A program made the translations under genes and the position numbers. The notes beneath the pieces were generated by a model. That model did not search any database, was not told where the DNA came from, and worked only from the letters and a program-made list of their open reading frames with translations. DNA of 64,000 nucleotides from Planctomycetota bacterium (lineage in GTDB: Bacteria; Planctomycetota; MHYJ01; WSZJ01), in the NCBI GenBank assembly GCA_038060895.1, contig JBBTCT010000007.1:164023-228022 (forward strand). The letters run 5' to 3'. Position 1 is the first letter of the stretch, and every line of letters begins with the position of its first letter. Shown in pieces: positions 10,067 through 40,444 of the stretch.

Positions 10067-12238
10067 CTACTTCTTCGGCCCCAGCTTCGCAACCAGCCAC
10101 CCCCCCTTCTGCTTGTTCGTCATCTCCTTCAGTATGGCCACCGCCTTCTTGCTTCCCACCCTTCCGTTCGAAAGGTCGTACATCACCGCCCTCGCCTTGT
10201 GCGCTCGGTAAATCGACGCGAAGGAATCCAGCACCACCTCCGTCGGCCCGGCAAGCCGGCGCGCGAGCTGCTTGAGCCTTCCCTCGGGCGCTTCGGGCTT
10301 CTCGTCGTTCAGCCTCCGCTCCTGCTCCTCCTCCGCCGGGGCCTTCACTTTTGACAGCGTCTCGTTGATCACGCGCCGCGTGCCGAAGTCCAGGCTCGGG
10401 TTCTCCTCGAGGAACTGCTCGCAACGGCGTCGGACCAGGTCCTTCTCGTAGTCCTCGAAGACCCCGCACTCCTTGAGGTACTGCGTCCCCTTGTCCTGCT
10501 GCCCGGTGTCCCGCGAGCACACCCGGTCCACCGCACGCTCGATGTCGCCGGCGCGCACCCAGCGCTCCGCAAAGTCGAGCCCCGTTCCCTTGATGTTCTG
10601 CACGCCCAGGATGTGCACGCGCGTGTTCGGGGGACACAGCGAGGCAACGTGCCGGATCAGGTCCGCACCCTTGATGTAGTAGTTCTGCACGGTGTGGATC
10701 GAGGACAGGAACCACCCCCGGTACCACACCCGGTGCGCTTCGAGCCAGGCATGAAGACCGCCCGACTGGATCGCGGCCTGAAGCGCCGCCTTGTGCATCG
10801 AGAGGGACACGAACCCGTTTGACGCCTCCGTGATGAAGCGCACTTCCTCGTCGGACGGGGTGATTCCCGGGGCGGCCTGCGAGAGCGCGGCCCGGGTGAG
10901 CGCATCGGCGTCGAGCGGGCAGGCCTCGAGCGCCGGGAGCATCTGTTCTTCGGGCACGGAGAGGACGTCTCCGCAGCGCCACGCGAGTTCCTCCGTGGTG
11001 CGCGAGAGGAAACGGAGGTTGGCGAGATCTCGGGCGAGGACGTTCTCGAGGTAGGTCGCGTGCTCGGCCCGGTCGGCCGGGAGCTCGAGCCGGGCGAGGC
11101 GGGCGCTGAGCGCTTCCTCGATGTAGCCGTTCAGGCCGTTGAGGTTGGAGCCGATGAGGACGAATTTATGGCCGGCGAGGTCGTCGACGACGATGGAAGC
11201 GAAGACTTTCGAGCGGGGGACGCGATCGGCGCGGTTGTTGACGACCATGACGGTCCAGTCGCGGCGGTCGCCGTTGGGGTTGTCGAGCTTGAGGCGGCGC
11301 CAGTTGTTCATGGTGCCGGCGCGTTCGTTGGCGGAGCAGCCGTTGGAGAAGCGCAGGCGGCGGCCGCCGGCGATGTGGACTTCTGGGTAGGTCTTGAGGA
11401 CGCCGAGGTCGGGGACGACGTGGTCGGCGATTTCCTTGATGAGGAAGCCGTCGTCGATGCCCATTTCGTGGCCGAGCTGGAACGCGAGCATGAGGTTCTT
11501 GGGGTGGACGTTGTAGGGGAAGCGCTCGAGGACGTCGGGGGTGAGGAGGTCGGCGAGCTCGGTCGCGGGTTCGATGAGGCGCGAGCCGCGCTTCCGCGCG
11601 AACTCGCGGAGGACCGGCTGGAAATTTCCCTCGGTGTGGATGACGGTGGCGCCGATGCCGATGAAGTTGGAAATGGCTTCGGAGACTTCGAACCCGGACG
11701 GTCCCTGGATGTCTTCGTGGTCGGGGTAGGTGTTGGTGATCGTTGAGATGTCGTCGGTCATCCACGACTGCTGCAGGATGCGCACGTAGTCGGCCTGAAG
11801 CGCCATGCATTCCCAGAGCATGACGTCGGCTTCCATGTTGGCGGCGACCTGGAGGACGGCGGTCTGCTCCCAGATCGTGGCCTTGTCGTGAGGGCGGAAG
11901 AGGTAGAACTCGCGCGACTCCTCGTAGTCGTGGGCGGTCACGAACATGGCTTCGCATCCGGTCGATTTGGAAAGCAACCGGTAGCCGAGTGCGTTGAACA
12001 GTGCGGCCTTCTTGCGTTCGGTCCCGGACTTTCCTCGCGTCCCCCAGCCGCCGACGACGAGGGGGATTTTCATCCGGGCGCGCCGCGCGCGGAACTGCCG
12101 CCAGGAAAAGAAGAAAGCGATCCACGCCACGACGAGGAGGACGAGGAAGGCGAGCTGCAGGAGGTTGTTGCCGGCGGGGCTGAACCAGAGTTCGCTCCAG
12201 TCGCGCCAGGATTCGAGGAAGCGGTCGAGGAGGTTCAT
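10067..12238 (-). CDS. pgsB: Poly-gamma-glutamate synthase PgsB/CapB-like Mur-ligase-fold amide ligase with N-terminal TM helix
   Basis: TM helix, then P-loop GTRGKS, KSTG, WECMALQADY, TNTYPDHEDIQGP, NGCSANE, NNRADRVPRS; these match CapB motifs as remembered (GIRGKS, KTTG, ECMAVQPDY, NGFAAND, NCRADRVDR). Long C-terminal extension. Confidence 0.88.
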   Translation of the reverse strand: MNLLDRFLESWRDWSELWFSPAGNNLLQLAFLVLLVVAWIAFFFSWRQFRARRARMKIPLVVGGWGTRGKSGTERKKAALFNALGYRLLSKSTGCEAMFVTAHDYEESREFYLFRPHDKATIWEQTAVLQVAANMEADVMLWECMALQADYVRILQQSWMTDDISTITNTYPDHEDIQGPSGFEVSEAISNFIGIGATVIHTEGNFQPVLREFARKRGSRLIEPATELADLLTPDVLERFPYNVHPKNLMLAFQLGHEMGIDDGFLIKEIADHVVPDLGVLKTYPEVHIAGGRRLRFSNGCSANERAGTMNNWRRLKLDNPNGDRRDWTVMVVNNRADRVPRSKVFASIVVDDLAGHKFVLIGSNLNGLNGYIEEALSARLARLELPADRAEHATYLENVLARDLANLRFLSRTTEELAWRCGDVLSVPEEQMLPALEACPLDADALTRAALSQAAPGITPSDEEVRFITEASNGFVSLSMHKAALQAAIQSGGLHAWLEAHRVWYRGWFLSSIHTVQNYYIKGADLIRHVASLCPPNTRVHILGVQNIKGTGLDFAERWVRAGDIERAVDRVCSRDTGQQDKGTQYLKECGVFEDYEKDLVRRRCEQFLEENPSLDFGTRRVINETLSKVKAPAEEEQERRLNDEKPEAPEGRLKQLARRLAGPTEVVLDSFASIYRAHKARAVMYDLSNGRVGSKKAVAILKEMTNKQKGGWLVAKLGPKK

Positions 12239-14907: not shown

Positions 14908-17900
14908 GGGGACCGCGCCTGCTGGTAGTCGCCGAAGCGGACCGACTCGGGATCGACGTGGTCGAGGCGGTCTCCGGAGCGGCCGCCGAAGCGGAAGATC
15001 AGGGTGAAGTGGGCCTCGCGCCCGTGGGTATCGGGAGACCAGCGGAATCCGGCTTGCGCGGACATCCATGTGCCGGGGCCGAGCCAGCGTTCGTAAGCGG
15101 TGGTGATTCCGATGCCCCTCTCGGAAGCGCGACGCGAGCGGAAGGCGTCGTCGATGCGGATGACGCGATCGAGCTCGAGCTCGACGAAAAAGTTCTCGTA
15201 ATGCGCGCCGGCCGTCACGCCGTAGGTGTAGCGGTCGGGCTCCCACGGCTTGAGAGTCGGCTCGGACCTTGTCGCAGCCTGCATGTCCACGTACACATTT
15301 TGCCACGGGATGGCGCGCAGACGGCCCTCGAACTGGAGCCAGCGATCGTGGTCCGTGCGGTAGCTCGTGTAGACCAGCGGGTGCTCGGGACGGCGGACGA
15401 TGCCGCTGTCCTTGAGCGAGGACCACCAGTAGTTGAAGTGGCCCGCGGCGAAGAAGATCCACTGTTCGTGAAGCTGAAGCCGCCATCGCAGGCGGATGTC
15501 GGATTCCCAGGAGTAGCCGTAGTAGCCGCCGAGATTTTGCCCCGCATAGTCGAGGTCGATCCGGTAATCGAGGTCGGGGACGTCGAGAAAGTAATGGTGA
15601 AAGCGGATCTGCGCGCCGTGAACAGGTGAGAACCCGCTCTCCTTGAGAGCGTACGCCGTCAGCCGCGTGTAGATCGGCGTCTCGAACGCCTTCCAGTGAA
15701 CGCGTACCCCGCTGCGGATCTCGTTGCGCTCGGAGTCCTCGTTGTACGCCAGGCTTCCCGCATTCCGCAGGAATCCCTCCACGTAGGTCTCCACCATCCC
15801 CGGATACTCCACCAGCCGCCACGACTCCCGCCTCCCGGGCGCCGGGGCAGGAAGCACGTCCGGCGCGGGGGGCGCTTCCGCCTCCCCGGCGATTTCTCCC
15901 TGAGGCGGCTGAAGCGGGACCATCCGGGCGAGCGCCGCACCGTCCACCGACCGGACCGAGAGCCGCACGAATGCTTCGCGCTCGAGTTCAAAGTCCGCGA
16001 ACGCCGCGCCGGCCCGGGGGACGCCCTGCAGAAGCGTCCGCTGGATCGTGGCGGGTTCGGCCGTCCATTGCCCCGGGTCGTCGGTCGCGGCGAGGTCCGT
16101 CGCATCCCAGGTTTCCATGCGCGCCAGCGTCGGCCCGCGCACTTCGAACGACCTCTTCCCCGCCGGCGCCCGATACAGCAGCCCGTTGCGTTCGGGCCGC
16201 ACCGGCTTCAGGCCGTCCGGCGTCTCGACGAGCAGCCGGGCGCGCGCGCGCACGCGGGCGAGCGGCCGGTCCGCGGCGACGCGGATCGAGACGAGCGATT
16301 CCTTCGTGGAGCCGGCCGGAAGCGTCAGCCTCTTCCCGGATTCGAGCGGCCCGGCGGAAACGACGGCGCCGTCCCGCTCGAGCTGGTAGGCGATGGCAGC
16401 GCCGGCGACGTCGCAGGCGGCGACGAGCTCGACGTGAAGCGACGCTTCGGCATCGGACCGGTGATGCCACTCGACGAAGTCCTCGTTGTCGAAGAGGACG
16501 GTGGCGGTTTCCCCGGGGAAGGGGAAAAAGAGGGCGTTGGAGACGGCGATGGCGGGGTCGTCGGGGAGGTCCTGGGAGATGCGGACTCGGCGGAATTCCG
16601 GGAGGTCGGCGGACAGGTCCACGCCGGTCCAGCGGGTGAGGATGCGCGCGAGGTCGTGGTTCGACTGCCAGTGAGGATTGCCGAGGCCGTCGGCGTGGGA
16701 CTTGAGGTAGAGGTCGAGCGCGCGTACGACCCACTCGGGTTCGGAACCGGGAACGCGGGTCAGGACGGCAAAGAGCAGGTCGTCGCCGAGGGCGGTGAGG
16801 GCCTCGGTGTATTCGGCGCGGCCGAAGCGCGGCGACGCGCCCGCCTTGCGGGCGGCGTCGAGCCGGCGCTTGAGATCGGCGACGAGGGGCGACTTCGGAT
16901 CCGGCGCGAACGCCGGAAAGTCGAGCGGCGGAGGGAATGGAACGCCGGCGGGGCGGGCGCCGGCGCGAGCATCCCAGGCCATCCAGACGGGGCCGGCCAG
17001 GCGGCGGACGGAGAGAAATCCGGCGCCGCTGACCAGCCGGATCTTCACGCGCGACTGCCCGGCCGGCGCGATCACGCGCCACGCGTCCACCTTGCCGGGC
17101 GCGGCCCACGGAAGGCGTTCGCACGTGACATTCGCCGCGGGCAGGCTCGCCAGCACGTCGTGCGTCGGAATCCCGGGAAGCCCCTCGACCACGATCCGCG
17201 CCGGCGGCGCGTCGCGGCGCGCGATCCCGCCCTCCACCGCGTGCGCCGAACGCCAGTTGAACTCGTACACCTCGGGGCCGGGAAGCGCGAGCGACAGTTC
17301 GGCCCCCTCGGTCATCCACGTCGCCTCCCACGCGCCGTACCGGCCGGAAATGCGCACGACAGGCGGCGTCGCCAGCACTTCGTCACTGCGCAGGTCCCGC
17401 GCGCGCTCGAGCGGCGCCAGCACGCCGCGCGGCGGCGGCCAGTCCGCCGTGCCGGCATACGGAATCACGAGCCGTGCTTCCAGCGCCCAATCGGCGAAGC
17501 GCGCCCCGCGGCCGAACAGGTAGCGGGAGGCGGAAAGAATGGCTTCGCTCTCGCAGCGCTCTGCAATCCTGGCGAGCGCGGGGCCGACTTCGGTGGCGGG
17601 ATCGAGCCTGCGAAGCCGCAGGAGATCGGTCATGACGGCCATGAGCGGGTCCGCGGGCTCGCCCGCCGGCGCCGGCTCGTCGATCGCCACCGCGACGAGC
17701 CGCTCGAGATCGGTCGAGGCGTCCTCCGGCTCGAGCCGCGCCTGCCGGAACCACGCGCGCGCGGCCGCGAGGTCGTCCGTACCCAGCGACGCGACCGAAG
17801 CGAGAAGGAAGAGTTCCCGCGACCGGCCGCCGGCGCGGATGATGGTCTCGACGCGCGCGCGCAGCTCCAGATCGTCGCCCGCGCGGAACGCGACGACCGC

Positions 17901-20795: not shown

Positions 20796-20864
20796 TCCGC
20801 GTGAGACAGGACCGCGCTTTCGCGGAGCCCCCGCGCGGTTTTCTACTCCGGTTGCGATGACGAG

Positions 20865-20873
20865 ATTCTAGCA
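20865..20873 (-). promoter_or_regulatory. Candidate extended -10 promoter for the 20795..10067 half of the locus
   Basis: Minus strand TGCTAGAAT about 70 nt upstream of the ATG; no good -35. Confidence 0.3.
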
Positions 20874-20998
20874 GCAGGTTCATCAAGCGGGAGGCGCGTA
20901 TCCGCGAGCAACGACTCTCTTGAGGCGGGGCACGTCCTGGGCCCTGACCAAGCACTCTCCCCCCGCTTTTTCCAGACCGCGGCTGGGTGAAGAATTTG

Positions 20999-21493
20999 TC
21001 ATTTGGGTAGACGTTCGTATTGTCCCCTTCGTGACTGCGGTAGATCGCTATAGTGAAGGTCTCTTCCGAAACCCTTTCCTCCTAGCTGCCCATCCGATCC
21101 AGTAGAGAACAAGTCGAATGTTTCCGAACGCTCGTCAAGCCGATAGGAATAGGCCCGGTTCCAGCCATCGACTGGAATATTCAAAATGTAGCCCCCTTCC
21201 AGCCAGTTGGATGCGTCAGCAGGCGCTGTGTTGAGTTCATTGAGTTCGCGCGGAAACCGACCGCAATCAGCTTTGAATTCTAGTATTGCGTCGCCAAGTA
21301 CTGCCAGGCGAAGAAGCGTGGATTCGGCTCGAACTGCCTCCCTAGTGCTTCGATTCCAAGAGACCAGAAGGAAACCCGAGAGAGAGAGCAAGAGAGCCGT
21401 ACCCGCCGCCAGCAGCAGCATTGAAATGCGTTGAAGCTTCACGCGGATCCTTTCAATTGCCTTGCGCTTGGAAAATCTGCACTCGCGCTTCAA
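20999..21493 (-). CDS. GspG-like (type II secretion major pseudopilin C-terminal domain) protein, orphan; start uncertain
   Basis: TM helix, then FKADCGRFPRELNEL...NWLEGGYILNIPVDGWNRAYSY...FDLFSTGSDGQLGG; no G|FTLIE prepilin site; visibly lower GC. Confidence 0.7.
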   Translation of the reverse strand: MKRECRFSKRKAIERIRVKLQRISMLLLAAGTALLLSLSGFLLVSWNRSTREAVRAESTLLRLAVLGDAILEFKADCGRFPRELNELNTAPADASNWLEGGYILNIPVDGWNRAYSYRLDERSETFDLFSTGSDGQLGGKGFGRDLHYSDLPQSRRGQYERLPK

Positions 21494-21720
21494 CGCCCGC
21501 TCATTCCTGGCGCTTCAAAGGGTCTCGAATGAAGCAGGACCCAACTTGACCGAAATCACGTGTTCGCCTTGGACAAGTTCAACTCTGACGGAAAAGATTA
21601 GAAGGCTTCGCCGCGCGCCGACGGCGCTTTGTTCACGACCATCGTCGTTTTGTCTTCGTCAAGGCCTCGAAGTTCATTTTACCCGCGGAACGTCGTGCTT
21701 GCCCAACTCTTCACCAGTGA

Positions 21721-22599
21721 TCAAGCTCTGCAACCGCAGCAGATGTCAAAGGTTATGGTGTATTTCGACCATGCCGGAGGTCGCCCCGGAGACCCGATTC
21801 CAGGAGCGGTGACTTTTGGAGCAAGGCCTCCCACCGTTTCGGCGGGCACCGCGGGAGCAATCTCGCGAGCGTCTACCAAACTGACTCGAGTCGGCACGCA
21901 ATTCCCTCGCTGGCACGGCGGCAAAGCTGAGCAAATCCCCTTCGCTCTTTCCTTGGCCCAAGCCTCCAGCAGGGCCATGACGACTGGAATGACCTTTGAC
22001 TGCTCGGCCGCGTCCAGCGGTGTCGTTCCGAATTCGATTCCTATTTCAATGACGGGTTCAGGCAAGGTCGCCGGGAGCGGCCAAGGCCAGCCGGTGGGTT
22101 TGTTGATGTGCGCAATTTTGCGCGTCAATTTAGCAGTCTCGCAATGCGACATCGATGGGAAAAACGCGTTCGTTGTCCTTCTCATTCGAGCGCAGACATT
22201 GCAGTTCGTTCCCAAGGGCCACGAAACAATGACGCCCGGAATGCCAGGGAACCCAGGAGGATTTGTCGTGGGTGACAGGTCGGATGGATCGATCCAGTCC
22301 AAGGGCAGAGCCGGACCGATTGGAGGCGCTTCTGGTGGCGGCGGCCATGGACCGGACGGAGGATTCCACAGCCTTCCTCCTGACGGCGGCGGGTCTCTCC
22401 AATCCGGCGGAACCGGCCCGAACGGATCTTCCGGAAATGGCTTGATGGCATCGTCGGGAAGCAAGACCTCGGCCGCAATTTCCGTCCGCGCGATCGCTGA
22501 TTGTGAGCCCAGTTGATCAAGTGTGACTGGGCGCGCGAGCATTGCCCTAGCGATGAGCGACTGCTCTACATCCTGGAAAAGACTACTTTGCGAAGACAT
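21721..22599 (-). CDS. Hypothetical protein with a Pro-rich linker and Cys-rich C-terminal domain
   Basis: 292-aa ORF collinear with its neighbours; PPDWRDPPP/PWPPPPEAPP tract; CNVC, C..CQRGNC, terminal ICCGC; lower GC. Confidence 0.6.
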   Translation of the reverse strand: MSSQSSLFQDVEQSLIARAMLARPVTLDQLGSQSAIARTEIAAEVLLPDDAIKPFPEDPFGPVPPDWRDPPPSGGRLWNPPSGPWPPPPEAPPIGPALPLDWIDPSDLSPTTNPPGFPGIPGVIVSWPLGTNCNVCARMRRTTNAFFPSMSHCETAKLTRKIAHINKPTGWPWPLPATLPEPVIEIGIEFGTTPLDAAEQSKVIPVVMALLEAWAKERAKGICSALPPCQRGNCVPTRVSLVDAREIAPAVPAETVGGLAPKVTAPGIGSPGRPPAWSKYTITFDICCGCRA

Positions 22600-22640
22600 T
22601 TTAAGCTCCTGTGTTTCGATTCAGGGACTGCCACGAAAGG

Positions 22641-23324
22641 CTATTTGCAAGAACGCATCCTCACGCACCAGTCGAGCACCGTGTTCCACAAGCTGGCGAA
22701 CCTGGCCGCCTGAACTTCAGGCGACCGAAGGCCCTCTTCGATCGGGACGTTTCCGTCAACCTGCGGTCCTCCTACTCCTGTGGCTGCGACAAAGTCGGAA
22801 GTGGCCTTGTAGTGGTCGAGCCTGTTCGCCACGCGCCATTCTCGGTTCAGGTAGAGGAAGGCCTCGCTCGGCAGGAACCTCCGATGCGTCGGATCCTGAA
22901 ACGCCCAGTTCGACCTCAGCGCCGGGACAATGACGGTCACGAGCCCGCCCGGCTTGAGGATGCGCCAGCACTCGTCGAAGAACGCGAAGAAGAGGTCGCG
23001 GTCGCCGGTGGAGGCGGGGACGTCGCGGTAGTCCCCCTCGGGCGAGACGTAGACCATCGGGATGTGCTCGACGAAGTGCGAGCAGTGCAGTTCGTCAATG
23101 GAGCTGTCGGCCCAAGGCCAGGGGAACTTCATCAAGTTCACCCTGTGCTTCGCGTCCGCAAACATGTCCACGCCCTCGAAGCCCTCGCGGCAGGATTGAC
23201 CGCAGGCGAGATCGAGTTTGAGTTCGCGGGCGGGAGAGAGGACGACTTCCGGCGAGGAGGAGTCCGGTCCTTGGGCGGCCGATGGGTGCGTTTCATGGAG
23301 TGAGACGAGGGCATTTTCGCTCAT
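22641..23324 (-). CDS. Class I SAM-dependent methyltransferase (type 11-like)
   Basis: KLDLACGQ, EGVD, FPWPWADSSIDELHCSHFVEH, ECWRILKPGG, QDPTH; start MSENAL preceded by AAGGAG. Confidence 0.85.
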   Translation of the reverse strand: MSENALVSLHETHPSAAQGPDSSSPEVVLSPARELKLDLACGQSCREGFEGVDMFADAKHRVNLMKFPWPWADSSIDELHCSHFVEHIPMVYVSPEGDYRDVPASTGDRDLFFAFFDECWRILKPGGLVTVIVPALRSNWAFQDPTHRRFLPSEAFLYLNREWRVANRLDHYKATSDFVAATGVGGPQVDGNVPIEEGLRSPEVQAARFASLWNTVLDWCVRMRSCK

Positions 23325-23338
23325 GGCAAGGCGCTCCT

Positions 23339-23755
23339 TTATCCGCAGAAGAAACGGGCAACGAGGGAGAAGATGGCCGGGTTGCCGCCCGACTCGACGG
23401 CCACGAAACGGACCTGGGCGAAGCTGTTCCCCGTGATGGCGGCGGAAGCGCTGTACCCGACCGCGGTGATCTGCAGCGCCGACCCTGCGTTTGACCAGTT
23501 GAGGCCGTTGTTGCTGACCTGGGCCTGGACGGCGGTCTGGAGCGAAGCGCCGAAGATCACGATGGCGACGAAGTCGAAGGCGTTCGCACCGTGGGTCGGA
23601 ATGGGAGGCGAAACCACGGTCCCGCTTGCCGCCAGGGCGAGCGGGTCCCAGACGGGTTCCGTGAACTGCGCGCCGCTGCCGCAGGGGGTCGCGGCGGAGG
23701 CGGATTCCGCCGCTGGGGCGGGCGAGCCTTCGCAAGAGCAACCGTTTCCGCTCAT
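23339..23755 (-). CDS. Small beta-sandwich protein, QxSxDG.WS paralog 4, Cys-rich N-terminus
   Basis: MSGNGCSC...GANAFDF...QAQVSNNGLNWS...VGY...SFAQVRF; ATGA overlap with the upstream gene. Confidence 0.72.
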   Translation of the reverse strand: MSGNGCSCEGSPAPAAESASAATPCGSGAQFTEPVWDPLALAASGTVVSPPIPTHGANAFDFVAIVIFGASLQTAVQAQVSNNGLNWSNAGSALQITAVGYSASAAITGNSFAQVRFVAVESGGNPAIFSLVARFFCG

Positions 23756-24102
23756 GACTTGCCTTCCTTTCTCTCGCTTGAGGAATTGCCGGCGGGGTCC
23801 GCGGCTTCGATCAGGAGCAGTTCGGCGATGACGAGGCGCGCCTTCTCCAGCCAGAGGCGGGCGCGCAGCAAGGGATACCGCGTCGCGACTTCGCCGGACG
23901 AGCAGTATCCGGGACAGGTGCCTTGCCACGACGCGATCTCGGACCAGTCCGAGCCATCGCCGGAGCCTTGGAGAGCCACATGGAGCGTCCCGCGGGCGAG
24001 GTTCAGGATGATCATCTCCACGCGTACGGGGCCATCGCCCTTGCGGCGGATCGGCCTGGAGAAGCAGTCTCCGTCCTTGAACGCGAATCTGTGCCGCTGC
24101 AT
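23752..24102 (-). CDS. Small beta-sandwich protein, QxSxDG.WS paralog 3
   Basis: VRVEMIILNL...LQGSGDGSDWS...PGY...YPLLRARL; TGATG overlap at its start. Confidence 0.68.
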   Translation of the reverse strand: MQRHRFAFKDGDCFSRPIRRKGDGPVRVEMIILNLARGTLHVALQGSGDGSDWSEIASWQGTCPGYCSSGEVATRYPLLRARLWLEKARLVIAELLLIEAADPAGNSSSERKEGKS

Positions 24103-26273: not shown

Positions 26274-26292
26274 GATTTTCTCCGAATGAGTG

Positions 26293-26751
26293 TTAGTTTC
26301 TCCAGTGGTGAAGCGAGGCCGCGAGGACGCCCTCGCCACCTGCCGTGTCGCTTGCTTCGTAGAACAGCCGTACGAATCGGAACCCGATACCGCGGACCTT
26401 TGTCGTCGCGTAGCCGATCGTCGTCTTGCGGAACTGTGCCGCGTCCGACCAGCAGACCGCGTCGTTGCTCACTTGAACGCGGAAGGAGATCGATCTGAGC
26501 GTCAGGTTGGCGACGAGGATATCGACGCGCACCGCGTTGCTTCCCTCGACGCTCACGGCCATCGAGGCCGTGACCTCGCCTTCGCCCAGACCCAGGTCCG
26601 CCGCGACTCGCACCGTTCCCGGAACGAAGGGGGGCGTCGGAGCTTCCAGATCGGCTCCGATCGCGTCGATGCGGACAGCATCCTCCGGCGGAGCTTCCGC
26701 CGATTCGCCGCTGCATCCTTGACCCCTCGCACATCCGTCACAGCAAGGCAT
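26293..26751 (-). CDS. Small beta-sandwich protein, QxSxDG.WS paralog 1, Cys-rich N-terminus
   Basis: MPCCDGCARGQGC...GSNAVRVDILVANL...RVQVSNDAVCWS...IGY...GIGFRFVRLFY; GAGGAGG RBS. Confidence 0.75.
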   Translation of the reverse strand: MPCCDGCARGQGCSGESAEAPPEDAVRIDAIGADLEAPTPPFVPGTVRVAADLGLGEGEVTASMAVSVEGSNAVRVDILVANLTLRSISFRVQVSNDAVCWSDAAQFRKTTIGYATTKVRGIGFRFVRLFYEASDTAGGEGVLAASLHHWRN

Positions 26752-27130
26752 TCGCGCGCCTCCTCAAGGGCCCCGAGCGGCGGAGAACGCTGAAGAGGCG
26801 TTTCCACCCGGACGCGTACCAACTCTTCCTCGACGCGTCGTCGCCGGCCAGCAGAGCCCTGAGCTGGGACTCGAGCCGGAGGAAGGCGGGCTCGGAGCAC
26901 GCGGAGGGAGAAACAGCGCGGCGATCGGCCACGCGCTCCGAGATAAACCGGAGCGCGGCGAGCGCAAACTCGGGTCCACGGATCACCTCCCGGAGCATGA
27001 ACCGCTGGCTGATCGTGATCCGCTTTCGCTCCCCTCGCGAACGGCGGGGCGATCCAATTTCGGAAGCGCCGTCGATTTGGCGCCTGATTTCGTGGGCCCT
27101 GACCTGAAGCCCGTGATCGTGTCGATCCAT
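26738..27130 (-). CDS. Hypothetical protein, first gene of the cassette (start uncertain)
   Basis: ORF whose stop overlaps the start of paralog 1; the ATG at 27130 lies just downstream of the sigma54 motif; no recognisable motif. Confidence 0.4.
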   Translation of the reverse strand: MDRHDHGLQVRAHEIRRQIDGASEIGSPRRSRGERKRITISQRFMLREVIRGPEFALAALRFISERVADRRAVSPSACSEPAFLRLESQLRALLAGDDASRKSWYASGWKRLFSVLRRSGPLRRRANALL

Positions 27131-27142
27131 GCAGGGCCAACA

Positions 27143-27160
27143 TTGCAACCGGAGTGCCGG
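27143..27160 (-). promoter_or_regulatory. Sigma54 (-24/-12) promoter pointing into the small-protein cassette
   Basis: Minus strand CCGGCAC-TCCGG-TTGCAA: exact GG-N10-GC spacing, about 170 nt downstream of a sigma54 activator gene. Confidence 0.7.
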
Positions 27161-27328
27161 GATGGAGCCTGTGCCAAACAAGTCCGCAAGTCCTGACGCA
27201 GAAACGATTTCTTCACTCCCGATCAAAAACCTCGTTTCGCCTGGAGAAAGCAGATTTCACACCGCGAGCTTTCTGCGCTTTCTCATTCTTCAACATCAGG
27301 TGGAAAACATGACCCCGCGAAATGGCTC

Positions 27329-28948
27329 TCAGGCTTTCCCTGGATTCTCCTCAGGCCCTGCTACTTCGCTTCCGCGCCGAGGCCGGCGCGTCCTGCCCGC
27401 ACGGGGGATCAACCCGTATTTCTTGAACCGCTCCAGGGCCGCCTGCCGCGTGATGCAGAAAATCTCCGCCACCCCGTTCGTCGTGCCGTCCGACCTGCGC
27501 ACCGCGTCCAGAAAGACAGCCCGTTCCTCCACCTGTCGGGGATCGCCGGCGCCGGTGCCGGTCTCCTTCTCCCAGCGGGGAACGAGCGCGCGCAGCGCGT
27601 TGAACGAAATCGGGCCGGGCATGCAGGACAGGACGGCGAACTTCAGGAACGCGAAGAGCTCACGGACGTTTCCGGGCCAGGGCATGGAAATCAGGTACGC
27701 CTCCGCTTCCGGCTCGATCGATGGCGTGAAATTGGCGGGAAGACCTGTCGCTGTCGCGGCGCCAAGAAGGAAATGTGCGATCAGGAGGGGAATATCCTCG
27801 CGGCGCTCGCGAAGGGGCAGAACATGGATTGGGAACTGCATCAGCCTATAGAGAAGGTCTTCGCGGAACTGGCCCGCCGCCCGCATCGCACCCAGATCGC
27901 GCCGGGTTGCGACGACGATGCGCGCGCGGACGGGCACCGGGGTCGTGCCTCCGACCCGGCAGAGCTCCCGCTTCTCGAGGACCGAGAGCAGTTTCGACTG
28001 CAGTTCGAGCGGCACGTCCCCAATTTCGTCGAGAAGCAGAGTTCCCTTTCCGGCGGCTTCGAAACTCCCCGCGTGCACGGCGCCGGCGCCCGAGTAGCCG
28101 CCCTTTTCGTGACCGAAGAGTTCGTTTTCGATCAGGTTGGGGTTGAACTTGCTCAGGTCCACCGCGACGAACGGTTCCTTCGCACGCGCGGAATTCGCGT
28201 GGATCGCCTCTGCCACGCGTTCCTTGCCGGTCCCCGTCTCGCCGGTGATGACGACGATGGCCTCCGTCGGGGCAACTTTCAGGATCTGTCCGACGAGCGC
28301 CTGCCGTCCCGCGCTCTTCCCGAGAATTCCAGGGCAGAGATCTCCTGCTTTCACGACATCGGCCTGGGTGTGGATCGGCGGGAAGACCGCCTTGTGAAGA
28401 ACGCGGACCAGGTTCCCGTCTCGAATCTCCGTCGTGGCGGCCCAGGCGCGGGGCAACGCTTCCTGGACGCATTGATGCAAGACCTGAAAAAGCGCTTCCA
28501 GAACGACCAGCCGGCGCCCGGTCAGTTTTCGCGCATTCGGGCCGCGGGCGATCCCGAGGACGGCGACCGTTTTCCCGGACCACTCGAACGGGTAAAGAGA
28601 AATGCCCTGAGTTCCGGCCAGGACCGCCCGCTGCTCATCCGATGCATCTTTGGGAGGAGGAGAGACGTCCGGCGAAGTGAAGGCACAACCGAAGCGAAAG
28701 ACCGCCTGGATACGGTCGCCCGAAACGACGTTTCCCCCGGGGAATTTCGGATGTCTCACCGTCCTCGGCGCCACCAGGGGAATCGCCAGGGGACGATGAA
28801 CAAATGTGGCCGAGTGGGCCACGGTGGCCGCGACGATTCGGTTGAGCGTTTCCTCGACCGTCTGCCAACGGAGGGCGGAGTCGTGGGTCAGGCTCGAGTC
28901 CTGGAGGCGTCGTAGGCGATCGATCGCGGATTCGTGGTCAGGCCGCAT
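27329..28948 (-). CDS. Sigma54-dependent enhancer-binding protein (NtrC/Fis family AAA+) with GAF-like N-terminus; start uncertain
   Basis: GETGTGKE, ELFGHEKGGYSGA, LLLDEIG, FREDLLYRL, WPGNVREL, C-terminal HTH. Confidence 0.92.
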   Translation of the reverse strand: MRPDHESAIDRLRRLQDSSLTHDSALRWQTVEETLNRIVAATVAHSATFVHRPLAIPLVAPRTVRHPKFPGGNVVSGDRIQAVFRFGCAFTSPDVSPPPKDASDEQRAVLAGTQGISLYPFEWSGKTVAVLGIARGPNARKLTGRRLVVLEALFQVLHQCVQEALPRAWAATTEIRDGNLVRVLHKAVFPPIHTQADVVKAGDLCPGILGKSAGRQALVGQILKVAPTEAIVVITGETGTGKERVAEAIHANSARAKEPFVAVDLSKFNPNLIENELFGHEKGGYSGAGAVHAGSFEAAGKGTLLLDEIGDVPLELQSKLLSVLEKRELCRVGGTTPVPVRARIVVATRRDLGAMRAAGQFREDLLYRLMQFPIHVLPLRERREDIPLLIAHFLLGAATATGLPANFTPSIEPEAEAYLISMPWPGNVRELFAFLKFAVLSCMPGPISFNALRALVPRWEKETGTGAGDPRQVEERAVFLDAVRRSDGTTNGVAEIFCITRQAALERFKKYGLIPRAGRTRRPRRGSEVAGPEENPGKA

Positions 28949-29110
28949 GGGATTCACCGTGGCGGCGACCAGCGAACGACCTCCCCGGAACCAGGGGGGG
29001 GGGCACCACGTCATTTGATCTAATTGTATTGATGTGTCGCCTCCAGAAACCCCGTTTTCCGGACAGCCACTCTACAGCAACTGATCTCGTGATTCTCTCA
29101 CGATCGACAC

Positions 29111-29655
29111 TCAGAAGACGAGCGGCTTCCCCTCGCGAACAGCAATTACAAGCCGGCGGACCTCGTCGTCGCCGCCAACGTAAACAAGACGAGCCAACCG
29201 GCCGAGACGGCCGACGCGGATGTGGGGATTTGCCGCCACGATCCGGGAGAAGTCCGCGGCATCAGCTTGTCCCTGGGCTTCATCAGGTCGATCACCGCTT
29301 CGTTGGTCGCCGGATCGATCATCCTCGTCACGACTTCGAGGACGCGAACCGTGAGCGATGGAAGGGTTTCGCGAATCGCGCGCACCGCCTTTCGGTGACT
29401 CCTGGGCGCGACGACGACGTCCACATCGACGGCGGCTCGCGGTTTTCTCGTCCAGCCTCCGAGGGCGTGTGCGCCTGCGAGGACGAATCCCACCGCGGCT
29501 TCGTTAAGAACTTCGAGGACTTTCCGGAGCCGGACCATGTGTTTCACCTGCCAGCTCGATAGGGCGGCGGACGTCAGGATCCTGCGAGCGTGCTGAAAGA
29601 GGTTCAACGAGGGAGTAGCTCCATGAACCCTTCGCTTCCGCACCCTGGCCGGCAT
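29111..29655 (-). pseudogene. Nucleotidyltransferase-family gene with an internal deletion/frameshift
   Basis: FVLAGAHAL...PRAAVDVDVVV (G[GA]...DxD motif). After IDLMKPRDK a second frame continues ADAADFSRIVAANPHIRVGRLGRLARLVYVGGDDEVRRLV...LVF to TGA at 29111. Confidence 0.65.
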
Positions 29656-29678
29656 AGCTGTGGCACGCCCTCGACGCA

Positions 29679-32600
29679 CTATTTCTTCCTCACTTCGTCC
29701 ACATCCGACAGCGCCCCGCCCTCCATGGCCATCCGGTACAGGTGCACCGCGTCGCCTTTCACCACTCCCCCGCGCAATTTCCCGCGCAGCAGCTTCGCCC
29801 CCGCGAACCGGTCGAGCTCCCACGCCATGCGGAACACCGGGATCCACGCGGCGCCGTCGGCGCCCGTGCGGACGGAGTCGTTCCCCGCGCTCGGGCTCAC
29901 CCAGTGGCGCTCGCGCGCGACCGGGAGCCACTGCTCCTGGCCGTCCTTCTCGAAGAGCCCTTCCCACTCGAACGTCCACGCGCCCCACTCGGGGATGCGG
30001 CGGCGTGAAGCGAGGAGTTCGAGGACGAGCTGCTCGCCTTCCTTCGGTGCCGCCGCTTCAATGAAGATTTCCCCGTCGCGTGGCGCCTGCCACACGGCGC
30101 TGATCGTGCGGTCGCCGTCGGCGGGGAGATCGACGGTGCGGACCTGCCAGCGGCCGCAGCGGTAGGCGGGGACGTCGCGGCCAGGACGGACGATGACGGT
30201 GTGGGCGCCGGCGGTGAGCGACGGGACGGAGAGTTCACCGCGGGTACGGAAGAGCGTTTCGCTGAGCACGAGCCTCCCATCGACGGTGACCTCGACGGTC
30301 GCGGCGCGCGCACCCTCGATCGCGACGTCCTCGAACGCGAGCCGGACGGAACCGAATTTCGCGCGCCCCATCGCGTCGCCCACGACGCAGGGCATCTCCT
30401 GGCCGAGCGGAAGCGGGCGCCAGAGCGGGCCGGGTTTGAGCCCTGGTTTGCGCCACGACGCGGCGCGGGAGAGCTCGATCTGCTCGGTCGCGCCCAGAAG
30501 CGTCAGGTCCACCGGCACGAGAGGGAGTTCGGGAAGTTCCCTTGAAGCGCCCTCCGAGTATTCCCACGGGGTGCTCCAGGTGGCGCGCGTCGGCCAGAGG
30601 TAATCGGGGCGGGGCTCCTCATCCCACAACCCTGTCGCCCTGCGCGTCCGCGTCAGGAACGCCGTGTACGGGAAGTCGTCGAGCGAGCCGACGGTGTGCA
30701 GCGCGACGTGCGCCGCCGGACCCGCCTTGCGCTCCCACGCAATCCAGAACCCGTCGCTCCACGCTCTCACCGCCGCGTCGCTTCCCCCCTCGGGAATCGC
30801 AAGCTCGATCGAACGCGACGTCCAGAGCACCGCGCGCGGCCGGTCGGCGTCGAACGTCCGCGGGTCGCGCGTCCACTTCAGCGCAATCCTCGCGCTCGTC
30901 CGGCCGCCCGGGCCGCCGACGCTCGCTTCGAGGAACTCCGACGGCGGCGTCGCCGCTTCGTCGGGGGCTTCCCACATGAGGCGGAAGCGCGCGAGTTCGG
31001 CGTTGAGCCCCGGATTGCGGTACGTGTCGTCGATGGCAGGGACCATGCGCCGCCAGTCGTCGCGCGCTTCGGTGACGGACAGGGGAAGGGGTTTCGGTGC
31101 GCCGAAGCGTTCGAGGGTGACGAGGATGGGGCCGGGACCGGCGGAGAGGACGCGCGCGCGGAGGGCGACGCAGTCGGAGGGGATGGCGACGGTCCAGTGG
31201 TCGAGCAGTGGTTCGAGCTGGAGGCGGGACGGTCCGCGGCCGGGGACGATCGCTTCGAAGATGAGGTCGCGCGACGGGTCGCGTCCCGGGGTTTCGATGC
31301 CGAGGCGTTTTCCGCCGAGTCCCTCGGTGCGCCACGTCCACGTGGTGCCGCTGACGATCGCGCGGCCGCCGAGGCGCGAGACGCCCACCGAGAGCCAGGC
31401 GCCGCCGGAGTGCGGGCGGACGCGGACGATGTAGTCGCCGGCCGGGAGGTCGGGGCCGAAATGCACTCGCGTCTGGAGCGTGCTTCCGGTGAGCTGCGGG
31501 CTCGCGTCCACGAACGTCACGCGCTCGCCGGGGGCGTCCGCGCCGACGATCCGCCGCCGCGGTTCCGTGCGCGCGCCGGTCCAGGCGCGGCGGCGCACGG
31601 CCCACGAAGGCGCTTCGATGTCGATGTCAAGCGGCGAGGGCGATTCGCCCTCGAACTGCGCGTTCAGCGACACCCAGGTCTCGACGCCGTCATGGGCGAC
31701 TTCGAACTCGGCGGGGATGACCGGAAGCGCGCGCCAGGCTCGGCGCAGGAGCTGCGCGAATCGCGGGTCGGGGTTTTCGTCGCCCTGCACGGGGCGGTTG
31801 ATGAACTCCGTTCCTTCGGGCCACGGTCCTTCGACCCACGGGAGGCGCGAGTAGGTGCCGTCCGGGTTTTTCACAAGCAGGTCTGCCGGGTCCGGCAAGC
31901 CGGGCTCGTAGAGAATCGGCACCGGCGGCTCGTCCATCTTCAGCGGCCGGTACGCCGACTCCGGCCACGGCGCATTCCACGGGAACAGCCGGTTCCGCGA
32001 AATCGCCCCGCGCGGCCGCGCCGGCCAGAGCGCCAGCGCGCTCCCCGCGTGCCGCCGCGGCATCGCCGCTTCACGGTCCCATAGCGCATCCGCCCCCGTT
32101 GCCCCCCGCAACGGCGCCTGCACAGCGGGACTCGGCAGGTCGATCACGATCGCAGCCCCCGCCGCCCGCAGGTCGCCCTCGTTCGACGGCCGCAGGTAGT
32201 GCCACACCTTCGTGTCGTCCGGCGGCTCCGGCTCGACGAAGCACAGCGTCCGGTCGGGCGTCTCTTCGGGCACGAGAACCAGCGGACGCATCTGCGGAAG
32301 CGTGTGCGACGGCAGGACCAGGGCCGGAGATTCCGCGCGGACTTCCATTACGAGCGCTTCGTCGGGGATCTCGATGAAGAGCTGCCCGGCGCCGGTGATC
32401 GTCCACGGCTCGCGCGGCTCTTCGGGCGGCAGCTCCTTCCCGCCCGGCGCCGCCGGCGGAAGACCTTCGAGCCGCGCGCTCCATCCTTCGGGCACGCGTT
32501 CGAGATCCGACGGGGTCAGCGGGATTTCGATGCGTTCGTCCGCGATCGCCAACCGTCCTGCCCCCACGATCCGGTAGCGCAAGGTCACGCTCGCAGGCGG

Positions 32601-33920
32601 CGGTTCGCCCACGCGAGACATCCCCCGCACCCGCAACTTCACCGTCGCCCCGGCTGCGGCGGCGCCTGCAGACCAGTCGAAGCGCAGCACGTCAGATCCC
32701 GTCGCCCCCGCAGGTCCTTCCGTCGGCGCCGTGCCGAGCCGTCCCGCAACCCCGAATCCTGCGCCGGCCGCGCGAAGCGGTGCGACCTGGTCGAGCGGCC
32801 CGATCAGCCACGCGACCGCTGCGCCCGAGGCGGGCGCCACCCAGAGTTCGGGCGTCCCGTCCCCCGGAATGAAGGCCATCCGCACTTCGGCCTGGCCACC
32901 GGCGGTCTTGCGCACCACGAGAGTCACCGGCGGCTCGAGTTTCTCGCGCCACACGGACTTCCCCGCCACCAGCCGCACGCGCGCCGATTCCGGCAGCCGC
33001 CCCGGCACGCGCTTTTCGATCTCCACGTCTCCCGGCCCGCACGTGTCCACCCGCAGCTCGTATTCGCCGGCGTGGTCCACGACGAACGCCAGCGGTTTCG
33101 ATGGCCCCAGCCGCAGCCCTGGCGTCCGCTCCGGTCCTTCTTCGTCCCCCTCCACCGGCGCGTCCACGTCCCCGGGCTGCACGTCGCGCCGGAACAGTTT
33201 CACGTCCTTCAGGTCCTTCCCGCTCTCGGCCGCGGCCGCAACCGTCACCCACTTCCACCCGGTCAACCGGTCGATGACTTCCTGGGGAGCGATCGTGCTG
33301 GGAAGCGCGGTGCGGGCCTCGAGCCGGTTCTCACGAGCTTCCAGCAATGCCGATTCCTGGTGGCGTGCGCCGGGCTGGAGCAGGGTCCGGGTATAGAAGC
33401 GTACGAACGTGGGGAGGGATTTCGGCTCGACGAGGGTGAACGCGAGCCGGACGGTGTCCGGCGGGAAGTCCTCGCGGCGGAGCGTCAGGTTGCGCGGCCC
33501 TGCGAGGGTGAGTCCGCCCGGCATCAGGTAGCGCTCCATCGAATCGGCGCCGACCGGCACGACCTTTTCCGAAATCGGACGGCGCCATCCTGAGATCGCC
33601 AGGATTTTCCCATGCTTGTCGAACCACTCGAGCTTCAGCTGCACGTCGGTGCGCGGCTCGATGTTCTGGACGACGAGGGAGGCGATCAGCCTGTCGGAAA
33701 CATCGTCTACCGAAATGAAGAGCCGGTCGCCGGCGGCCATTTCATAGAAGAGACGGCGGCCGAGGAGCTCGGCTTCCTGCTTGGCGACGGCCTTTTCGCG
33801 GATGTAGAGCTGAATCACGGCGGCGGAGCCGCCCGTGAAAATGGCCATGGCCAGGGCGGCGAAGCCCATGCCCCTCAGGGACAACTTCCGGCGGACGACG
33901 GGGCGGGCGTCGAATCTCAT
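29679..33920 (-). CDS. Large (1413 aa) N-terminally membrane-anchored, beta-rich hypothetical protein of the PGA locus
   Basis: Basic N-terminus plus one TM (GMGFAALAMAIFTGGSAAVIQLY); ATGA overlap with the pgsC-like gene. Confidence 0.8.
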   Translation of the reverse strand: MRFDARPVVRRKLSLRGMGFAALAMAIFTGGSAAVIQLYIREKAVAKQEAELLGRRLFYEMAAGDRLFISVDDVSDRLIASLVVQNIEPRTDVQLKLEWFDKHGKILAISGWRRPISEKVVPVGADSMERYLMPGGLTLAGPRNLTLRREDFPPDTVRLAFTLVEPKSLPTFVRFYTRTLLQPGARHQESALLEARENRLEARTALPSTIAPQEVIDRLTGWKWVTVAAAAESGKDLKDVKLFRRDVQPGDVDAPVEGDEEGPERTPGLRLGPSKPLAFVVDHAGEYELRVDTCGPGDVEIEKRVPGRLPESARVRLVAGKSVWREKLEPPVTLVVRKTAGGQAEVRMAFIPGDGTPELWVAPASGAAVAWLIGPLDQVAPLRAAGAGFGVAGRLGTAPTEGPAGATGSDVLRFDWSAGAAAAGATVKLRVRGMSRVGEPPPASVTLRYRIVGAGRLAIADERIEIPLTPSDLERVPEGWSARLEGLPPAAPGGKELPPEEPREPWTITGAGQLFIEIPDEALVMEVRAESPALVLPSHTLPQMRPLVLVPEETPDRTLCFVEPEPPDDTKVWHYLRPSNEGDLRAAGAAIVIDLPSPAVQAPLRGATGADALWDREAAMPRRHAGSALALWPARPRGAISRNRLFPWNAPWPESAYRPLKMDEPPVPILYEPGLPDPADLLVKNPDGTYSRLPWVEGPWPEGTEFINRPVQGDENPDPRFAQLLRRAWRALPVIPAEFEVAHDGVETWVSLNAQFEGESPSPLDIDIEAPSWAVRRRAWTGARTEPRRRIVGADAPGERVTFVDASPQLTGSTLQTRVHFGPDLPAGDYIVRVRPHSGGAWLSVGVSRLGGRAIVSGTTWTWRTEGLGGKRLGIETPGRDPSRDLIFEAIVPGRGPSRLQLEPLLDHWTVAIPSDCVALRARVLSAGPGPILVTLERFGAPKPLPLSVTEARDDWRRMVPAIDDTYRNPGLNAELARFRLMWEAPDEAATPPSEFLEASVGGPGGRTSARIALKWTRDPRTFDADRPRAVLWTSRSIELAIPEGGSDAAVRAWSDGFWIAWERKAGPAAHVALHTVGSLDDFPYTAFLTRTRRATGLWDEEPRPDYLWPTRATWSTPWEYSEGASRELPELPLVPVDLTLLGATEQIELSRAASWRKPGLKPGPLWRPLPLGQEMPCVVGDAMGRAKFGSVRLAFEDVAIEGARAATVEVTVDGRLVLSETLFRTRGELSVPSLTAGAHTVIVRPGRDVPAYRCGRWQVRTVDLPADGDRTISAVWQAPRDGEIFIEAAAPKEGEQLVLELLASRRRIPEWGAWTFEWEGLFEKDGQEQWLPVARERHWVSPSAGNDSVRTGADGAAWIPVFRMAWELDRFAGAKLLRGKLRGGVVKGDAVHLYRMAMEGGALSDVDEVRKK

Positions 33921-39979: not shown

Positions 39980-39982
39980 GGG

Positions 39983-40444
39983 TTACCCGGCGCCCCCGGG
40001 GCGTCCGAAGACATCGCTCGAGTCGGATCGTTCAGGGGGAGGGATCGTCGATGAGCCGAGGACGGATTCCATCGTGAGAACGAGTTCCTTGATTCCGAAG
40101 GGCTTGACGAGGAAAGCGGCGGCGCCGAGGGAGAAGGCCATTTCCTTGTCCTTCTGGCTGTCCCGCGCCGAGCCGATGATGACGGGGATCGAAGCGAGAT
40201 CCTGTGAGGATTTGACCGCGCGGAGAACCTGGAACCCGTCCATGCCGGGCATGAGGAGATCGAGGACGACGACTCTCGGCATGATTCTGCGGATCTTGCG
40301 CAAGGCATCGAAGGGGTCGCCGATCGCCTCCACGGTCCACCCGCGACGCTCGAGGCCCCGCTTGACGACGCCGAGGAGATTGACTTCGTCATCCACGTAG
40401 CAGACGAGGTGTTGGGGCGGCTTATTGACGAGCTCGTCGGGCAA
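39983..40444 (-). CDS. Single-domain response regulator (CheY-like)
   Basis: YVDDE, VLDLLMPGMDG, SAR, FLVKPF. Confidence 0.93.
   Translation of the reverse strand: MPDELVNKPPQHLVCYVDDEVNLLGVVKRGLERRGWTVEAIGDPFDALRKIRRIMPRVVVLDLLMPGMDGFQVLRAVKSSQDLASIPVIIGSARDSQKDKEMAFSLGAAAFLVKPFGIKELVLTMESVLGSSTIPPPERSDSSDVFGRPGGAG

Follow-up and report, generated by a model that had tools for sequence, protein, structure and literature searches.

How a bacterium with two membranes would make a poly-γ-glutamate (PGA)-type polymer and move it across its envelope is the question raised by a gene set on contig C7 (JBBTCT010000007.1) of a Planctomycetota bacterium, whose genome, G000, has a size of 5.4 Mb, divided among 47 contigs, and a completeness of 86.5%. 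The studied PGA systems are those of Gram-positive Bacillus, in which CapA/E and CapD handle release and anchoring; to our knowledge, the export of PGA-type polymers in two-membrane bacteria has not been worked out. The gene set lies in a stretch of 64,000 nucleotides, C7:164023-228022, hereafter the window, and consists of genes for a response regulator, a kinase-like membrane sensor, a protein in which two CapC repeats are fused to soluble domains (the CapC fusion), a 1413-amino acid (aa) protein (family X), a 1966-aa protein (family Y), a HEAT-like protein and a PgsB-like ligase. An earlier note, made from the letters of the window, had described these genes as a co-directional set, and all seven open reading frames (ORFs) are indeed present where it had placed them, on the minus strand; their nearest protein homologues bear Planctomycetota names. 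We conclude that these genes form a conserved functional unit. The identity of the ligase, the co-occurrence of the genes, a modelled barrel in Y and a membrane anchor in X together make a layout of synthase, periplasmic part and porin the best reading. On balance, we favor a trans-envelope, synthase-dependent system for a γ-glutamyl-type polyamide.

In the ligase, a hydrophobic helix at the N-terminus precedes the ligase domain (residues 32-374, window 11117-12145), which is followed by ~350 aa of conserved C-terminal extension. The sole NCBIfam family that it matched at E<=0.01 was PgsB (TIGR04012), at 192.3 bits. Ligases of the same large type in 18 other genomes scored 179-222 bits with this family, and full-length canonical copies 409-490 bits. 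In phmmer searches with the ligase domain, large-type homologues were found at 1e-84 to 1e-126 and the canonical PgsB proteins of G000 and of Myxococcota at 1e-29 to 1e-46, while the five Mur/FolC paralogues of G000 reached E>=0.28 at best. A maximum-likelihood tree of 23 rows, in which the Mur rows form long branches and cyanophycin synthetase is not among the rows, split the PgsB-type proteins from Mur/FolC at support 100/98 and united all 12 large-type ligases in one clade (99/98). The motifs GGWGxRGKSGTER, YPDHED and NNRxDR are invariant in 12 large-type ligases, whose C-terminal extension, which canonical PgsB lacks, has invariant motifs of its own (QNIKGxG and RQKGGW). Sequence searches of the Protein Data Bank (PDB) with the ligase and with the CapC fusion gave no matches; the canonical PgsB of G000 matched only folylpolyglutamate synthase there, weakly, and a PgsB structure is absent from the PDB copy that we searched by sequence. 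The claim that the ligase is CapB-like rather than MurC-F-like is thus borne out by TIGR04012, phmmer and the tree. By homology, the window ligase belongs to the wider PgsB/CapB family, as a separate clade, and it would form γ-glutamyl amides at the expense of ATP.

A pattern scan of 185,579 species genomes returned 357 loci encoding relatives of the CapC fusion (the loci of such relatives in other genomes are labelled L0xx below). The best 80 of the 357 come from Planctomycetota, many Myxococcota (Corallococcus, Pyxidicoccus, Sorangium, Polyangium, Nannocystis, Plesiocystis, Enhygromyxa and Haliangium), a few Gammaproteobacteria, one Porphyrobacter and one member of the Blastocatellia. We then counted co-occurrence in 302 genomes: 151 Myxococcota, sampled evenly, and 151 Planctomycetota, G000 included. 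CapC was found in 44 of the 151 Myxococcota and PgsB in the same 44, with canonical PgsB over its cut-off in 33. Two CapC matches in one long frame occurred in 12 of the 151; a ligase scoring 187-222 bits, encoded in a frame of 749-1758 aa, was present in these genomes and no others, and in 11 of them the two genes share a contig, 13-15 kb apart. One Myxococcota genome of the 151 carries both system types. Among the Planctomycetota, the large ligase (179-218 bits) was found in seven genomes and double CapC in the same seven, whereas canonical PgsB was present in only one, G000. Thus, over both phyla, the 19 of 302 genomes with double CapC are exactly the 19 with the large-type ligase, a count that becomes 17/17 among 300 when the two centre genomes, known positives, are left out, and in which related genomes are not independent. 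The order CapC fusion-X-Y-HEAT-ligase is kept in Arenicellales, Litorivivens, Corallococcus and Plesiocystis (four phyla or classes); in several Planctomycetota, the ligase gene lies upstream or is divergent instead. The expectation that the giant ORFs would accompany pgsB and pgsC in other genomes therefore held across phyla.

Family X matches no Pfam or NCBIfam family. The window protein has a single hydrophobic helix at residues 18-36, with Arg/Lys before it, and the N-terminal hydrophobic anchor is kept across X proteins of 700-1460 aa from other loci, in agreement with the membrane anchoring claimed for the 1413-aa protein. Searching with an X profile that had been iterated seven times yielded 79 matches among 3175 ORFs. 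Of these, 78 immediately follow a CapC fusion in the same orientation; the remaining one occupies that position in a locus with a CapC ORF that had not been scored. X follows the CapC fusion in 67/67 loci with at least 2.5 kb of room. From its sequence, the bulk of X is predicted to be periplasmic. In two loci, a single stop-to-stop frame (1738 aa at L058:9904-15120, 1839 aa at L069:9964-15483) matches the CapC fusion as well as the X profile, and some Sorangium/delta-type genomes may therefore encode the two as a single polypeptide.

The window Y protein likewise has no match to a Pfam or NCBIfam family. It has a signal-peptide-like N-terminus (judged by eye), as do its homologues, followed by a region of ~1640 aa without family and a C-terminal barrel. 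An AF2 model of its last 340 aa, built from 20 sequences (pLDDT 83.6, pTM 0.79), has 14 long antiparallel strands, so that the region earlier described as beta-barrel-like is an outer-membrane barrel of 14 strands in the model. Foldseek with this barrel placed OmpG first (E 1.8e-10). VIA alignments ranked CymA highest (Z 20.2, root-mean-square deviation (rmsd) 3.4 Å, 254 residues aligned), followed by OmpG (Z 18-19.6, rmsd 3.0-3.7 Å, 227-247 residues) and the C-terminal barrels of the exopolysaccharide exporters PelB (Z 15.5, 4.8 Å, 240 residues), PgaA (Z 15.2, 4.0 Å, 227 residues) and BcsC (Z 14.8, 4.2 Å, 258 residues).

Word-seeded searches with Y found just close Planctomycetota relatives (9 proteins each), and phmmer with its last 1200 aa against 1.84 billion representatives gave 7 matches. 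Since these searches reach close relatives only, homology of Y across phyla needed profile-profile comparison: hhalign of the C-termini of Y and of the gammaproteobacterial and Myxococcota Y proteins gave a probability of 97.3% (E 2e-11, 247 columns), or 94.9% with a shallower alignment. Across phyla, no part of Y is better conserved than the barrel, and a profile of it picked up additional Y proteins, each located downstream of X, in L019, L029, L030, L032, L045, L047, L069, L071 and L082; in most loci, the ORF after X, of 1570-2090 aa, is Y. A SPOR domain is present near residue 740 in the Y proteins of two gammaproteobacterial loci (L094, 51.7 bits; L097, 23 bits; cut-off 21). The SPOR domain is peptidoglycan-binding and, together with the signal-like N-termini, it places Y in the periplasm and outer membrane. 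The porin half of the "TPR plus porin" proposed for this protein is thus supported by the model, while its TPR half is not: no TPR match to Pfam was found in the window Y and 10 homologues (E<=0.01 to 0.05). Feature matches of Y to TPR/PgaA clusters in the ESM Atlas, at 0.78-0.80, stay below 0.9 and are at the level of a lead; the Atlas gave no structure for X or Y, with feature scores of 0.78-0.87, again at lead level. A 1427-aa ORF near the HEAT-ligase gene of Sorangium So ce56 was considered as a Y and rejected, as it matches protein kinase, STAND NTPase and FGE-sulfatase families; it remains in alignments A3 and A5, so that the profiles are slightly diluted.

The CapC fusion scores 126.5 bits with PF14102 (cut-off 27), with two matches in one 1062-aa frame. 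An AF2 model of the whole protein, from 61 sequences (pLDDT 84.6, pTM 0.68), shows a helical membrane part of two repeats (residues ~14-177 and ~200-360), two carboxypeptidase-like alpha/beta domains (~381-618 and ~639-912) and a C-terminal domain. VIA alignment of the two alpha/beta domains matched CCP5 (Z 8.5), succinylglutamate desuccinylase (AstE; 8.3), N-formylglutamate amidohydrolase (7.8), PghP (7.0) and YndL (6.8), at an rmsd of 3.7-5.2 over 150-180 residues, and Z values of 6.8-8.5 are in a range common by chance. The weak Foldseek rows for the whole model include the phage PGA hydrolase PghP, YndL and M14 peptidases. No conserved His, Glu or Asp was found in the two domains across 61 homologues, the only near-invariant residues being L605 and A698. 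If the modelled fold is real, these carboxypeptidase-like domains are probably non-catalytic, and as a lead, the soluble domains of the fusion may possibly bind the polymer chain without catalysis. Helix counting together with the positive-inside rule gave a contradictory picture of the side of the membrane on which the C-terminal domains lie, and the assignment was dropped.

We also predicted a complex of the CapC repeats (residues 1-365) with the ligase (residues 1-420). It scored 0.57, with 0.00 for the best of three controls, and was rated "weak support". The mark for this score is passed by 116/157 solved complexes and 2/215 mismatched pairs, and passing scores of <=0.60 comprise just 18 of the 157 solved complexes and both passing mismatches. 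Contacts agreed to at least 87% between runs, and the partner pLDDT was at least 70. The pairing of CapC with the ligase, which was expected beforehand, is likely by analogy with the Bacillus system.

The HEAT-like protein scores below the Pfam cut-off (Table 1). In L094-L098, L099-L104 and L106, a single ORF of 1402-1758 aa encodes both proteins, with HEAT on the N-terminal side of the ligase, an arrangement found in Arenicellales, Litorivivens, Corallococcus, Plesiocystis, Sorangium and others; among the genomes of the co-occurrence sample that carry the system, the ligase frame measures at least 1362 aa in 11/12 Myxococcota and in 3/7 Planctomycetota. This gene fusion ties the two proteins together. 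No signal peptide was found in the HEAT protein, which is probably a cytoplasmic partner of the ligase rather than a component of the conduit.

Table 1 Features of the locus, with their positions in the window
Feature	Position	Strand	Basis or remark
Single-domain response regulator, 153 aa, no output domain	39983..40444	-	PF00072 74.2 bits, residues 14-123
Kinase-like membrane sensor, 912 aa	37241..39979	-	Weak NCBIfam histidine-kinase matches
Double-CapC fusion, 1051 aa	33917..37072	-	Two PF14102 stretches, 126.5 bits
Family X protein, 1413 aa, N-terminal membrane anchor	29679..33920	-	Hydrophobic helix, residues 18-36
Variable insert between X and Y genes	20796..29678	.	Outside conserved system
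Family Y secreted protein, 1966 aa	14895..20795	-	Signal-peptide-like N-terminus, C-terminal modelled barrel
14-strand beta-barrel domain of Y	14988..15797	-	Model residues 41-310 of last 340 aa
HEAT-like protein, 890 aa	12235..14907	-	HEAT_2 24.2 bits, below cut-off 27.7
PgsB-like amide ligase, 723 aa	10067..12238	-	TIGR04012 192.3 bits, residues 32-374
Pseudopilin in insert, T2SS-G-like	20999-21493	-	66.1 bits
Sigma-54 enhancer-binding protein in insert	27329-29014	-	Sigma54_activat 191.2 bits
Small insert ORF	23339-23929	-	Shared motif
Small insert ORF	25941-26339	-	Shared motif
Small insert ORF	26293-26751	-	Shared motif
Insert ORF	22641-23741		End resembles SAM-methyltransferase by eye
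Multi-TPR protein, 230 aa	40729-41421	-	Directly upstream of response regulator

The window had been reported to lack capA, capD and a glutamate racemase gene, and the large proteins had been thought to replace a missing CapA/E-type system. The genome bears out the former statement: the sole PGA_cap (CapA) match of G000 lies on contig C1, the sole G_glu_transpept match lies on C16, and the glutamate racemase family Asp_Glu_race is unmatched. It speaks against the latter. At ~98.3-105.2 kb of C1 (L006:4375-11165), G000 carries a canonical PGA locus in the order CapA-like protein (PGA_cap, 686 aa), a 527-aa protein without family, PgsB, PgsC and a TIGR04332 system protein. Its PgsB (413.5 bits) and PgsC (123.7 bits) both exceed the equivalog cut-offs, and the TIGR04332 protein scores 280.3 bits; upstream of the locus are genes for an aminotransferase and a GNAT-like protein. 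With this locus present, the window locus is an additional, divergent system and not a repaired or partial copy. Profiles of X, of Y (both its barrel and its N-terminal part), of HEAT and of the tails of the CapC fusion and the ligase found nothing else in G000. Mur ligase genes are present in the genome although it has no match to the glutamate racemase family.

The window locus resembles PgsBCA(E)/CapBCADE of Bacillus in pairing a Mur-ligase-type amide ligase that has an N-terminal hydrophobic helix with a CapC-family membrane protein. It differs in that the ligase forms a separate clade below the equivalog cut-off, with a 350-aa extension and a HEAT partner; in that CapC is tandem-duplicated and fused to ~690 aa of soluble domains; and in that CapA, CapD and CapE are missing and three extra components, for the second membrane, are present. 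No PGA_cap match was found among the locus proteins, so that the locus is not a canonical pgsBCA(E)/capBCADE operon. The pgsB-pgsC-TIGR04332 cassette on C1 likewise represents a PgsB/PgsC pair in a two-membrane organism, but the seven window proteins give no TIGR04332 or PGA_cap match. The exopolysaccharide secretion systems PgaABCD, BcsABC, Alg8/44-AlgK-AlgE and PelB-G share with the window locus an inner-membrane synthase, a periplasmic part and a giant scaffold with a C-terminal barrel. However, the window polymerase is by homology an ATP-dependent amide ligase rather than a glycosyltransferase, and no glycosyltransferase family was matched among the locus proteins; its barrel is modelled with 14 strands, closest to CymA/OmpG, and no TPR family and no sequence homology to those systems were detected. 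The likeness is one of layout only. The two alpha/beta domains of the CapC fusion share a weak fold likeness with zinc amidohydrolases of the M14/AstE/PghP type (CCP5, PghP and YndL) but lack conserved His, Glu and Asp. We found no description of double-CapC fusions, HEAT-PgsB fusions or a PGA-type outer-membrane exporter in a literature search from which subscription journals were mostly absent. The core enzymes of the locus are recognizable, while we know of no description of its remaining three conserved parts or of the domain fusions. We hold it fairly probable that the locus represents a second, large type of PgsB/PgsC system, one for a two-membrane envelope.

The two regulatory genes had been described as a two-component pair that includes a CHASE2 kinase. 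In the translation of the response regulator, the acidic pair, the phospho-acceptor Asp, the Ser and the Lys are readable, and homologues of this regulator lie upstream of the kinase-like gene in L008-L013, L015, L025 and L027. The kinase-like protein matched no Pfam family at E<=0.01; its NCBIfam histidine-kinase matches are weak (best 1.8e-9), and HisKA (12.9 bits) and HATPase_c (13.4 bits) both fall under the Pfam cut-offs. The positions of the His and the N-box also vary among six homologues, so that kinase activity is uncertain. As to CHASE2, the topology of the window protein, an N-terminal hydrophobic stretch (by eye), ~240 aa and three helices at 279-346, is that of a CHASE2 layout, and CHASE2 was matched in the Blastocatellia homologue of L056 (79.1 bits) and, below threshold, in those of L012 (66% identical; 23.4 bits) and L097 (20.2 bits). 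The window copy, however, had no CHASE2 match even at E<=1, and its pairwise homology with the L056 protein spans residues 520-823 only. The pair is found in Planctomycetota and at single loci of Alphaproteobacteria, Gammaproteobacteria and Blastocatellia; the Myxococcaceae loci lack it and have a sedolisin-type peptidase gene upstream in its place. In Myxococcus, a single-domain regulator is reported to activate exopolysaccharide synthesis by binding the initiating enzyme (PMC12802240); the window regulator may be likened to it, by analogy only.

The 8.9-kb insert between the X and Y genes has a lower third-position GC content and encodes a T2SS-G-like pseudopilin and a sigma-54 enhancer-binding protein, both co-directional with the system and both missing at this spot in close relatives. 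L008 and L009 (83-85% protein identity) contain another insert, with genes for a VTT-domain protein, an RNA-methyltransferase and Dus on the opposite strand, and L012 and L015 contain none. The spot is therefore variable and not part of the system; the idea of an island shared with relatives was rejected, as the insert has no similarity to those of L008 and L009. The motif "N-D/N-G-x-N/C-W-S" recurs in three small ORFs of the insert, which are possibly paralogous; they match no meaningful Pfam family (one nucleoporin FG row, at 18.8 bits, is below cut-off). The end of a further ORF resembles an S-adenosylmethionine (SAM)-methyltransferase by eye.

Judging from the coordinates, 4-nt overlaps of the ATGA type join the CapC fusion to the X gene and the HEAT gene to the ligase gene. 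The Y and HEAT genes overlap by 13 nt if the HEAT start, the ATG at 14907 from which its 890 aa are counted, was chosen correctly. The response regulator and kinase-like genes are separated by 3 nt, and the kinase-like gene and the CapC fusion by 168 nt. Unrelated genes flank the set, namely dapF, a FabA-like gene, uvrD and carB at one end and, at the other, those for a small TPR protein and an ABC1 kinase. A gene for a 230-aa multi-TPR protein lies directly upstream of the response regulator gene on the same strand; L012 has a 247-aa ORF at the matching position. Two metatranscriptome runs of one sample, X7 and X10, contain short exact contigs over the genes for the 1413-aa protein, the CapC fusion and the kinase-like protein. 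We rejected these as proof of transcription: their depth, 2-4, hardly differs from that of X8, a DNA run belonging to the same study, the insert is covered too, and DNA can occur in such libraries.

Several observations weigh against a trans-envelope system for a γ-glutamyl-type polyamide. Both core proteins fall under the equivalog cut-offs of their families (ligase, TIGR04012, 192.3 versus 222.7 bits; CapC fusion, TIGR04011, 53.1 versus 96.45 bits), and the large-type ligase clade sits on a branch of length 1.9. The fold matches of the soluble domains of the fusion lie, as noted, in a range common by chance, and Foldseek with the whole fusion model found nothing at E<=0.001 (best E 6e-3). 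Topology is a further difficulty: the attempt to place the C-terminal 690 aa of the fusion on one side of the membrane was, as noted, contradictory, and in the fused forms a hydrophobic helix lies between HEAT and ligase, which bears on the sidedness of both. As to the gene set, the X family was delimited with a seven-fold iterated profile, homology of Y beyond Planctomycetota is confined to the C-terminal domain, no Y was found between X and the ligase in L072, L084 and G193, and in So ce56 (Sorangium cellulosum, L098, G001:C1:10366000-10385999) 113 kb separate the CapC fusion from the HEAT-ligase fusion. Finally, Asp_Glu_race had no match at E<=0.001 in the 86.5%-complete G000, and G000 and G044 each carry both a canonical and a large system, which counts against simple redundancy.

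The last of these points bear on what is made. The same machine might export another product, be it another amino acid polymer, a mixed polyamide or a glutamylated carrier (lipid, glycan or protein), and the separate, long-branched ligase clade below the equivalog cut-off, its extension with QNIKGxG and RQKGGW that canonical PgsB lacks, the canonical system kept in G000 and G044 and the unmatched racemase family all fit such a product. We nonetheless regard it as unlikely, though well worth bearing in mind: PgsB is the sole family match of the ligase, the nucleotide-binding and other core motifs are invariant, and the best fold matches of the soluble domains of the fusion, weak in Z as they are, act on glutamyl amides; moreover, we know of no other partner chemistry for CapC repeats. 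As to where the product goes, the polymer or carrier could stay in the envelope as a periplasmic or wall-attached layer, with the barrel merely anchoring the Y scaffold. The SPOR domain of two Y homologues, the loci without Y and the ranking of CymA and OmpG above PgaA, BcsC and PelB would suit this alternative, which we consider improbable, since the PelB, PgaA and BcsC exporters still match the barrel at Z 14.8-15.5 and the barrel is the very part of Y that is best conserved across phyla. CymA and OmpG are, besides, open sugar channels, so that a 14-strand barrel of this kind could pass a linear chain. That the genes are chance neighbours or an annotation artefact without joint function might be argued from the unrelated 8.9-kb insert inside the set, from regulators that differ between lineages and from the split in So ce56; however, with complete co-occurrence in two phylum samples, an order conserved in four phyla or classes, gene fusions, start/stop overlaps and accessory proteins without a paralogue elsewhere in the genome, this explanation is close to refuted.

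We therefore return to the trans-envelope polyamide system. The earlier proposal of an inner-membrane synthase, a periplasmic scaffold and a TPR-plus-porin conduit survives in its synthase, its anchored component and its barrel, and loses the TPR part and the place of HEAT in the conduit. γ-PGA as the product, and its export, are inferences. By homology, the PgsB-like ligase would be held at the inner membrane by its hydrophobic helix, bound by or fused to a HEAT-like scaffold, and would use ATP to polymerize an amino acid, most likely glutamate through γ-amide bonds. The tandem CapC repeats would be its membrane partner and the probable translocation path, and the two carboxypeptidase-like domains may grip the acidic chain instead of cutting it. 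Topology and models suggest that X reaches across the periplasm or lines it from an anchor in the inner membrane, and that Y is secreted and, in some lineages, contacts the wall through SPOR, the chain leaving through the 14-strand barrel. In Planctomycetota, a CHASE2-type kinase-like sensor and a receiver-only regulator may gate the system, probably by protein contacts rather than by transcription. Put at its fullest, and tentatively, since we hold this combined picture to fall somewhat short of an even chance, the locus would define an undescribed trans-envelope class: a HEAT-PgsB-like ligase, a pseudo-symmetric double-CapC channel with two dead, chain-holding domains, an anchored X and a wall-contacting Y with an exit barrel, together a polyamide counterpart of the cellulose, poly-N-acetylglucosamine (PNAG), alginate and Pel machines, spread over Planctomycetota, Myxococcota, Proteobacteria and Acidobacteriota and making a product distinct from that of canonical pgsBC.

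What emerges is a candidate five-part machine, each part of which has a proposed place in the envelope and three parts of which lie outside Pfam/NCBIfam families. Among its carriers are the cultured and non-pathogenic Corallococcus coralloides, Pyxidicoccus fallax, Plesiocystis pacifica and Sorangium cellulosum, which makes knockouts and polymer chemistry feasible. The portion of PMC5542703 available to us describes PGA capsule systems, defined by CapB plus CapC, as particularly abundant in Planctomycetes among others, and the two PgsB/CapC classes are not told apart in that portion. In Planctomycetota and Myxococcota, the matches that bear the names PgsB and CapC fall into two classes, and pooling them would mislead genome-based counts of "PGA capsules".

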